DNA of 64,000 bases, from NCBI RefSeq assembly GCF_003334385.1, contig NZ_QOWN01000005.1; one strand, written 5' to 3'. The position numbers were made by a program. Source of the DNA: Escherichia coli. GTDB taxonomy: Bacteria; Pseudomonadota; Gammaproteobacteria; Enterobacterales; Enterobacteriaceae. Shown in pieces: positions 17,001 through 20,000 of the stretch. Within the stretch, counting starts at the first letter, position 1; the number at the start of each line of letters is the position of its first letter.

Positions 17001-20000
17001 CTTTCAGTTGTTGCGTGTGGCTACGCTTTCCATTCGGTAATTCCCTTCCTGCTCCACAGCGAATTTTTGAACTTTTTCTTCACCCGTTGACCGTCTCTTA
17101 TATTTCATTTTAACGGGTCTGTTATGGTCCTTTCTGATTGTTATTCATGGGCTAATTAGCAGTCTGGTTGGCGATGCCCATCTCGGTGATCCGTGTCCTG
17201 CACGACGCCTTGCGTCACTAGCCTCTTCTCTAGCTCATCATGCAGGTCTTTCTAATTGTGAAATCATCCCACGCTACTGCTAAGGTTGAAGGGGCGTTCC
17301 AGCCCCTTCAACCTTAGCTTATTCTGGCTCATTCAATAATTGCGTTGTCAGTAATTTGTTCAGCAGTACTTTTTTAGTAGCAACTTCTTCAGTAGCAACT
17401 CCTTTAGTATCAATTTTTTTAGGGGGGATTTTATTAATAATAATTACCTCATCATATAGGGAGGTAGCACCGTTCACGGTAGCACCGTCCAGGATAGCAC
17501 CGTCCAGGTTAGCACCGTCCGGGTTAGCACCGTCCGGGGTAGCACCGCCCAGGTTAGCATTCCACCCAGGTCTCTCATAAAGGATATCATTGCTACCTTT
17601 CATTGTTTTTTTACCAAGGTAACAATCCCTCATGTCAACGCCGGGAAGGTAAGCCTTTCTAAGATCAACGCCCAAGTTACCTTGGCCCTTATGCAGCTGC
17701 AACGTCTGAGTACATATCTTATTCTTTTCAATGAAAAAAGTGACACTTAACTCGATATCCCCGAAGGTCTGGGCGACCCAGCGCATATTGCCCTTTGCGA
17801 CCAACTCATCCGGATTTTTTGCGCATGTTTTAAGTTTATTGAATAATTCCAGGCTATTGATAAACTTTTCTCTCTCATTCTCGTTGATAGCCCCAGTAAA
17901 GTATTCTGAGGCGTTGATGTTGCCAGTCTGGTTATTCACGAAATTGAACAGAAGTTTATAAGCCTCAGTCTGTTTATCTGACCAGAACAGATGGCGTAAC
18001 GTCTCCCACAAGCGTTGAAAGATATTCATCTTCACGTCCATCTTGTCCCCGCTCACCATCTTATAAATATCGTTCTTGCTCATATTTAAAAGTGTAACCG
18101 GCATGCCTGGAACTGATACTTTCATGGTAATAGCCTCGCATTGAGTTAAAAACTCATGATGCGCGTTCTGAATAAATATACTTTCAAAAATCGCTCATTC
18201 AGGTATGTGTTTTTTATTTTTAAGACGTAAAAATATAATTCCGCTCGTCGTAAAGCTCTCAACCTTAAGCAGGGTCAACGCGATAAAACCTACAGAACCC
18301 CTCCCGTAAACCGTGCATTGAGCCTGTCCACCATTCTGAGTAAACGCCTTTTCTCAAAGAAGTGACCGCCAGGGCGGCCACCTTTAATCGTGGGCAGTTA
18401 CTCAGCATCATTTACAGGGTCATTTAAACCCTTTCTGCTGCTTTATCAGCTCATATGCCTGCTGAATTTCCTGCGCTTTCTGCTTCGCCATCTCCATCAT
18501 CTCAGGCGGCAAACCTTTCGCCACCAGCTTATCGGGATGGTGTTCACTCATCAGCTTACGGTAGGCACGTTTGATGGTGGTCGCATCATCCGTCGGCTTC
18601 ACGCCCAGCACATTACAGGCATCTTCCAGCGTTGGGCCACGCTGCGCTTGCTGCCAGTTACCACCGCCAGTTTGCTGCTGATAACCGCCGCCAAACTGTG
18701 CACCGCCCTGCATCATGCGCAAAAACTGGTCAAACTGAGCGCGGGAGATCCCTAATTCTTCTGCAATGACATACAGCACCGCCCGTTCATTCGGGTGCAG
18801 TGAACCATCAGCAAACGCCGCCTGAATCTGGATCTCCAGAAACATACGAATTAAGTCAAAACGACCAAAGCAGACACTGCGAAACTGGCGCATCTTTTCG
18901 CGCAGCGGGTAATTGTCTGATTTTCCCACCCGGAACGCATTTTGCGCCGCAGTACGGGAAGCGCCATGAAGATTCATTCGGTCCATCAACTGGCTGGCGA
19001 TATGAATATCAGCCTCCGTGACGCGACCTTTGGATTTGGTTAAATGCCCCATCACTTCAAAAGTGGTGGCAAAAAACAGCGCCTGACGCTCACGCTGGTT
19101 GGCGAACCACGCCATTTTACGGCTACGGGCTTTATCAAACATATGGCCAATTAACAGGCCTAACACTACGCCCCAAAAGCCGCCGCCCATCAGTAAGGCC
19201 ACGGCCACGCCAATGATTTTTCCCCAATACTGCATATATTCCCCAAATCGACACACGGATATCAGGGCTATCTCCCACAATATAAAGGTGCTTTTACCGT
19301 TTTCCGGCTGCGGTCAATTGTGGGACATCGCCTATAATTTGCATTATCATACCTGTCATTCAATGCCGTGCCTAACACCACTGACGCTATTCGGACAGGA
19401 TTAACACTAGCGTAGAGATGACGAGTACGTTAGTCTCTGACCGTTTGTCACGCGCAACGTTACCGATGATGGAACAATAAAATCAACGTATGAAAAAACG
19501 TATCCCCACTCTCCTGGCCACCATGATTGCCACCGCCCTTTATAGTCAACAGGGACTGGCAGCCGACCTCGCCTCACAGTGCATGTTGGGCGTGCCAAGC
19601 TATGACCGTCCTCTGGTACAGGGCGATACCAATGACTTACCCGTGACTATCAATGCTGACCACGCGAAAGGGGACTACCCGGATGACGCCGTGTTTACTG
19701 GCAGCGTGGATATCATGCAGGGTAACAGCCGTCTGCAGGCCGACGAAGTGCAGCTCCATCAAAAAGAGGCACCAGGACAACCGGAGCCGGTACGTACCGT
19801 TGATGCGCTCGGTAATGTCCATTACGACGATAACCAGGTGATCCTCAAAGGGCCGAAAGGCTGGGCGAATCTGAACACCAAAGATACCAACGTCTGGGAA
19901 GGTGATTACCAGATGGTGGGTCGCCAGGGTCGCGGTAAAGCGGACCTGATGAAACAACGTGGCGAAAACCGCTATACCATTCTGGATAACGGTAGCTTTA

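Follow-up and report, generated by a model that had tools for sequence, protein, structure and literature searches.

We examined a 64 000 nt stretch of Escherichia coli DNA (contig NZ_QOWN01000005.1; hereafter the window) around a perfect inverted repeat that lies between rluA and djlA, next to the stop codon of yabP, also named espY1. The region is that of rapA-rluA-variable segment-djlA-lptD in E. coli, and the window is in the opposite orientation to the K-12 map. The palindrome was found to sit where the remnant of an insertion sequence (IS) related to ISEc13 breaks off, with one arm and most of the loop inside the remnant. The features concerned, in window coordinates, are the following.

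~16912–18422, no strand: variable segment of ~1.5 kb, comprising the IS remnant, the palindrome, espY1 and the region upstream of espY1 (from genome comparison).
16946–17300, plus strand: remnant of an ISEc13-like IS (IS4/Tn5 family), which retains the left terminal repeat, the leader and, interrupted by frameshifts, the first ~57 codons of the transposase (blastn).
16946–16964, plus strand: left terminal inverted repeat of the remnant, CTGCCTCTTGTACATAAAT, with 15/19 matches to the ISEc13 repeat CTGTCTCTTATACACAAGT.
17279–17295, plus strand: left arm of the palindrome, GCTAAGGTTGAAGGGGC, ISEc13-like transposase coding sequence, codons ~51–56 (A-K-V-E-G-A; A-Q-V-E-G-A in ISEc13).
17296–17301, no strand: loop of 6 nt, GTTCCA, in which GTTCC is codon 57 plus the first base of codon 58 (GTACC in ISEc13).
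17302–17318, plus strand: right arm, GCCCCTTCAACCTTAGC, an exact reverse-complement copy of the left arm that is not in intact ISEc13.
17279–17289, minus strand: RNA 3'-terminus peak of the yabPQ transcript in MG1655 (MG1655 59309–59319; dominant position 59315, window 17283; PMC10687069, Supplementary Data 3 and 4).
17319–18125, minus strand: yabP/espY1, intact, 268 amino acids, orthologue of a pentapeptide-repeat effector of the type III secretion system (T3SS); its stop adjoins the right arm.

The arms are complementary at 17/17 positions across the spacer GTTCCA, exactly as in the original prediction, and the TTA at 17319–17321 that follows the right arm is the reverse complement of the yabP/espY1 TAA stop on the minus strand. 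That the palindrome abuts this stop is true of the window but not of O157-type alleles, in which a 1 nt indel shifts the frame, the protein ends ...DNAIIE and the stop is 10 nt farther from the palindrome. The inverted repeat is far beyond chance. No other perfect short-loop hairpin in the 64 kb window is as long, the next having 13 and 11 bp, and the longest perfect hairpins in 20 shuffles of the window had 8–11 bp. No second match to the 17-mer was found in the window with up to three mismatches allowed. The second-longest perfect hairpin, at 58347–58380, has 13 bp arms ATATTGGCAGAAA and an 8 nt loop; the third, at 49444–49471, has 11 bp arms AAAATGCCGGT and a 6 nt loop and resembles a bidirectional terminator.

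The RNA fold energy of the 40-mer is -33.0 kcal/mol for the yabP (minus) strand and -33.9 kcal/mol for the plus strand, with 17 pairs of which 10 are G-C, and in a 101 nt context the fold z score is approximately -6 on both strands. The original prediction stated that neither strand has a U-tract and that the structure is therefore not a canonical intrinsic terminator. For the yabP strand both statements are right: the tail after the stem, AGUAGCGUGGG, lacks a U-tract and a consensus terminator scan called no terminator on this strand. The first needs qualification for the plus strand, which has a weak T-rich tail, TTATTCTG, and was flagged by the same scan as terminator-like with 17 pairs. 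An Rfam scan of 16000–19500 (E ≤ 1) returned nothing relevant, the sole match being a chance snoRNA elsewhere, and nothing about this palindrome was found in the literature on yabP/yabQ and ISEc13.

Comparison of the window with the intact ISEc13 of an Escherichia fergusonii plasmid, used as the reference, revealed that 16946–17300 and ISEc13 positions 1–351 share 87.9% nucleotide identity over 356 nt (blastn, E = 1.5e-125). As only the first ~351 nt of the element are present, without its right end, this is a remnant and not an active IS. Searches of the window for the right end of the IS, for an inverted second copy and for other ISEc13 sequence found nothing. Translation of the remnant gives MVLSDCYSWAN..LGDP..RRL... 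and, after frameshifts, ..SSHATAKVEGAF, and tblastn matches it to ISEc13 transposases. RefSeq annotation (Prokaryotic Genome Annotation Pipeline) has at 17124–17302 a frameshifted and C-terminally truncated pseudogene for an 'IS4/Tn5 family transposase DNA-binding protein', which extends into the left arm and the loop.

The ISEc13 homology crosses the left arm (GCTCAGGTTGAAGGTGC in ISEc13) and the loop and stops at 17300; both are therefore transposase coding sequence. Intact ISEc13 lacks the right arm and continues instead as GCCTGATGCGTAACC, and its reading frame across this point, ...GCT CAG GTT GAA GGT GCG TAC CGC CTG ATG CGT AAC..., contains no palindrome. The E-G-A-Y-R encoded at the equivalent of the breakpoint is a conserved motif of Tn5-type transposases. 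The same 40 nt of intact ISEc13 fold at just -8 to -12 kcal/mol, and the other ISEc13-like copies, of which there are up to 31 per genome, all lack the palindrome. By this comparison the right arm reads as an inverted copy of transposase coding sequence, located at the point where the IS is truncated. A recombination scar had been one of the options offered for the palindrome; it gains support in a more specific form, as the junction at which an ISEc13-like remnant that had not been recognized breaks off.

The variable segment is a presence/absence polymorphism of the rluA-djlA intergenic region. Approximately 38% of complete E. coli genomes have it, while in the other ~62% the TAA of rluA is followed by a 116–149 bp spacer of repetitive extragenic palindromic (REP) sequences and bacterial interspersed mosaic elements (BIME) and then by djlA. 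As these island-less genomes have nothing but the REP spacer between the rluA TAA and djlA, the variable segment is placed at ~16912–18422. The palindrome was present in 2,072 of 5,426 complete E. coli genomes, in a single copy per genome and at this locus only, so that a search for it elsewhere in the genome, proposed with the original prediction, returned nothing. The locus itself is present in 2,078–2,086 genomes, and the palindrome accompanies essentially every copy; the prospect that close relatives with yabP might lack it was not borne out. Homology between the island and empty alleles breaks exactly at both flanking stop codons, and djlA ends in TGA where the island is present and in TAA in the empty allele. 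The island also contains the mapped 3' end of djlA (MG1655 58244, window 18354).

Template switches and fold-back synthesis leave a characteristic trace, the reverse complement of the bases that immediately precede a breakpoint, so the right arm was most likely made by a replication event of one or the other kind. Template switching creates perfect hairpin stems in one step and perfects inverted repeats in E. coli (PMC8794818, PMC5941160, PMC7202029). The two arms follow the pattern of such a switch, the left being ancestral, as in ISEc13, and the right a 17/17 reverse complement of it that ISEc13 lacks. As the remainder of the IS was lost, a DNA 3' end within the transposase gene would have folded back or switched template. 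A 3' end in GCC may have primed on the GGC at the end of the left arm (GCC/GGC microhomology), and fold-back synthesis would then have copied 14–17 nt of its own complement before resuming at the 3' end of espY1, such that one event could have given both the perfect hairpin and the loss of the remaining IS. The first three bases of the right arm (GCC) could be IS-derived and could have served as the fold-back microhomology. At the junction, ISEc13 has ...GGTGCGTACC followed by GCC..., and the window has ...GGGGCGTTCCA followed by GCC.... As the closest intact IS is just 88% identical to the stub, and given the extra A and the lack of a pre-event allele, the exact switch points are uncertain.

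A two-step route to the same structure would start from two inverted ISEc13-like copies, or from a long snap-back palindrome, that later deletions trimmed down to 17 bp arms. ISEc13-like elements are indeed multi-copy in many E. coli genomes, at up to 31 places, and long palindromes are unstable in E. coli and are deleted down to shorter ones. However, two or more events would be required, the first of them with a symmetric breakpoint, which is less economical than a single template switch, and to the right of 17318 there is no inverted IS sequence: the window reads TTATTCTGG and not the AGTAGCGTG expected from such an origin, which we therefore consider quite unlikely. A hairpin made by a Tn5-type transposase, or cleavage at a cryptic end, was also considered and rejected as unlikely: transposase hairpins arise at the ends of an element, and the sequence here bears no resemblance to the 19 bp end.

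One lineage has changed within the left arm and lends independent support to the IS origin of that arm. Strain Z1323CEC0014 has the ISEc13-type base at every informative site from 17129 to 17282 and the window-type base from 17293 on. As the switch lies between 17282 and 17293, a gene-conversion tract of ~150 bp from a real ISEc13 copy ended inside the left arm; it has overwritten the interior of the old IS stub. The tract removes the frameshifts of the stub, and the annotation there is no longer 'frameshifted'. The A-to-C change that it brought in at 17282 is uncompensated, the partner base at 17315 being unchanged; the stem is thus mismatched at one position, with a fold of -28.9 instead of -33.0 kcal/mol. 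Among 12 divergent alleles, all of 17247–17327 is invariant except in this strain.

The rluA transcript also ends within the remnant. Just past the terminal repeat, at 16961–16988, a hairpin CCCCGAGTCCGGGG followed by TTTTTTG resembles a terminator for rluA and is conserved in intact ISEc13. The primary 3' end of rluA (MG1655 59610, window 16988; signal 0.99) falls within the T-run of this hairpin, and therefore rluA in island-bearing strains is terminated by an IS-borne terminator, while other strains have REP elements there.

In K-12, the yabP/espY1 open reading frame is split by a frameshift into yabP and yabQ. With window position x converted as 76598 minus the MG1655 position, the hairpin corresponds to MG1655 59280–59319. 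RNAtag-seq of MG1655 in LB medium in the TRS study (PMC10687069) placed a terminus on the plus strand of MG1655 at 59309–59319, dominant at 59315 and classed as 'Primary' for yabQ, with adjusted p values of 3e-4, 8.5e-8 and 0.024 in three libraries, a signal of 0.78, a fold energy of -27.5 kcal/mol, a maximum U-run of 2 and a 3' untranslated region of 37 nt. This terminus is in the descending arm of the hairpin, 4 nt from the base of the stem; thus, a defined RNA 3' end exists there, and the MG1655 data do not show the read-through lacking a defined 3' end that would have counted against the palindrome. They also support the earlier suggestion of an RNA stability hairpin, which holds alongside that of a recombination scar. 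According to Dar & Sorek 2018 (PMC6061677), the ends of Rho-dependent transcripts lie just past stable stem-loops that have no uridine-rich tail and that stop polynucleotide phosphorylase (PNPase) and RNase II. As its tail has no U-tract, the yabP hairpin fits this class of protective 3' stem-loops, and in MG1655 the steady-state 3' end indeed lies at a stable stem-loop without a U-rich tail. When yabP is transcribed, the palindrome would fold into a -33 kcal/mol stem-loop without a U-tract, whose main role may be to hold back 3'-5' exonucleases (PNPase, RNase II) once transcription has ended farther downstream, in the manner of the stem-loops of Rho-terminated E. coli transcripts.

Taken together, we regard the palindrome as the probable breakpoint scar of a truncated ISEc13-like IS that lies tail-to-tail with yabP/espY1, with its hairpin serving as an exonuclease barrier at the 3' end of the yabP mRNA, and put the probability of this at roughly 75%. 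Several observations weigh against it. The GCC microhomology needs a 1 nt difference, the extra A, relative to ISEc13. No genome was found with the pre-event arrangement, in which espY1 would either adjoin an intact IS or have no IS beside it, and the event is therefore reconstructed and not observed. Downstream of the hairpin the minus strand is G-rich, with a C/G ratio of 0.46–0.95 over the first ~100 nt, and so lacks the excess of C over G of a Rho utilization (rut)-like sequence. The 3' end was mapped to a position 4 nt into the stem instead of just past it; it was seen in one dataset, and the examined supplementary files of Adams et al. 2021 contain no 3' end at yabP/Q. Conservation does not single out the palindrome either: the 48-mer containing it is identical in 2,015 genomes, compared with 1,948 for the adjacent 48 nt of the stub and 1,106 for the next 48 nt. 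As the palindrome is no better conserved than its flank, we make no claim of selective constraint, and there is no sign of specific selection on the hairpin.

Termination by the hairpin itself has to be weighed against protection from exonucleases. If the hairpin were an intrinsic terminator without a U-tract and halted RNA polymerase where yabP ends, the mapped 3' end, with its read-through measure of 0.78, would be the true termination point and not a trimmed one; the 17 bp stem at -33 kcal/mol is very stable, the G-rich minus strand downstream disfavours Rho loading, and direct roles of such structures in termination are considered possible by Dar & Sorek (PMC6061677). However, established intrinsic termination in E. 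coli requires a U-rich tract after the stem (summarized in PMC6061677), and only 2 of the first 8 tail nucleotides here are U (AGUAGCGU). The 3' end is also in the descending arm instead of 7–9 nt beyond the stem, and termination at this point is unlikely. A role on the other strand, as a back-up or bidirectional terminator that stops read-through from rluA or the IS transposase promoter running antisense into yabP, would suit the convergent arrangement of rluA and yabP, the -33.9 kcal/mol fold and the terminator-like call with 17 pairs and the tail TTATTCTG. The U-tract in that tail is nevertheless interrupted and weak, rluA transcripts already end ~290 nt upstream at the IS-borne hairpin and T-run (signal 0.99), and the examined part of the PMC10687069 dataset has no terminus on that strand near the palindrome. 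We consider this use of the hairpin improbable, more so than termination on the yabP strand.

A protein-binding site had also been proposed, and found no support. As a DNA-level element, either an operator or recombinase site or a dispersed palindromic repeat such as REP, the palindrome has its dyad symmetry as the sole point in favour. Against this, it occupies one locus per genome in 2,072 genomes and is found nowhere else, has no second copy in the window and no Rfam match, and one of its arms is plainly transposase coding sequence. Arms of 17 bp around a 6 bp spacer are atypical for operators, and an uncompensated change in one arm has been tolerated in strain Z1323CEC0014. Such a role is very improbable indeed.

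The gene on the other side of the junction is itself variable. In other strains, RefSeq names its product T3SS effector EspY1 or 'pentapeptide repeat-containing protein'. The palindrome is retained across espY1 alleles whose proteins share 70–98% identity and differ in repeat number. The 3' half of yabP (17368–17560) contains two sets of in-frame 15 nt tandem repeats, with three copies at 17368–17412 and six overlapping copies of the pentapeptide-repeat unit at 17450–17569. Their copy number differs by strain, giving EspY1 proteins of 233–286 amino acids that are 70–98% identical, a divergence far above that of the flanking core genes. When protein homologues were searched for, EspY1 orthologues were found only in E. 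coli and Shigella, at this locus, and no native espY1 3' flank was seen elsewhere. A scan of contigs with the YabP protein returned one E. coli-like contig with the same arrangement and no independent espY1 context. This contig (JAIJJM010000692.1, 1.6 kb) belongs to a metagenome-assembled genome labelled 'Collinsella sp.', is 93% identical to the E. coli rluA-espY1 segment, palindrome included, and is almost certainly a binning contaminant. In E. coli SW070919, a copy of IS903B interrupts the 3' part of espY1 just past the palindrome (at about 2056–2979 of that locus), and the palindrome and the IS stub are intact.

Other observations concern the ISEc13 family. A second sequence, CCGTCTCTTATATTTCATT, at 17091–17109 matches the IS terminal repeat at 13/19 positions. 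It lies ~145 nt into the element, shortly before the transposase ATG, recurs in intact ISEc13 and its related copies, and may be an internal site for transposase binding or for regulation. Further ISEc13-like left ends were found in plasmids pUTAK-18-1 and pCUPF09A, ~1 kb from a gene for an AvrPphF-family type III effector and directly downstream of pgtA; the 86 bp plasmid match downstream of pgtA is simply such a left end. These locations hint that the ISEc13 family is often associated with horizontally moved cargo, effector genes included.

The odd perfect palindrome of the K-12 reference region would thus be debris of a mobile element, with no need for a new regulatory element, and would provide a clean, datable example of a DNA rearrangement that created a stable RNA 3' hairpin in one step. 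In the ~38% of complete E. coli genomes that carry the segment, the 3' ends of rluA and yabP are defined by IS-remnant sequence, and other strains have REP sequences. For annotation, the transposase pseudogene and the palindrome should be read as one feature. Current understanding is unchallenged by this locus, which appears to be an ordinary, well-explained instance of known processes. A bolder possibility, which we hold to be doubtful, is that the single template switch at the IS truncation made a functional mRNA 3'-end element for the horizontally acquired espY1, and that selection, or template switching that corrects the palindrome, has preserved it since. If so, the locus would be one of the rare instances in nature where both the ancestral sequence (ISEc13 transposase codons 51–57) and the RNA structure derived from it are known, and the IS remnant would supply the 3' ends of both convergent genes, rluA and yabP.

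Among known systems, the quasipalindrome-type mutations made by template switching (PMC8794818, PMC5941160, PMC7202029) are alike in that one arm is ancestral and the other is an exact reverse complement that has replaced unrelated sequence. In the classical cases an imperfect repeat is already present and changes locally at a few bases, whereas here the change coincides with a large IS-truncating deletion and the return point is far from the point of departure. With the protective 3' stem-loops of Rho-dependent transcripts (PMC6061677), the yabP hairpin shares a stable stem-loop after the coding region, the absence of a uridine-rich tail and a precise steady-state 3' end, a likeness of structure and mapped end. 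It differs from them in a stem that, at 17 perfect pairs, exceeds the typical length, in a downstream sequence rich in G and not in C, and in an evolutionary origin that can be traced to an IS fragment. A canonical intrinsic terminator likewise has a GC-containing stem-loop immediately after the stop codon and an associated RNA 3' end, but the yabP strand lacks the U-tract and the 3' end is in the stem instead of a U-run. Like the REP/BIME elements that fill the rluA-djlA spacer of island-less strains, which can stabilize mRNA 3' ends, the palindrome is extragenic and lies between convergent genes; unlike them, it is present in a single copy, lacks the REP consensus and comes from IS coding sequence.

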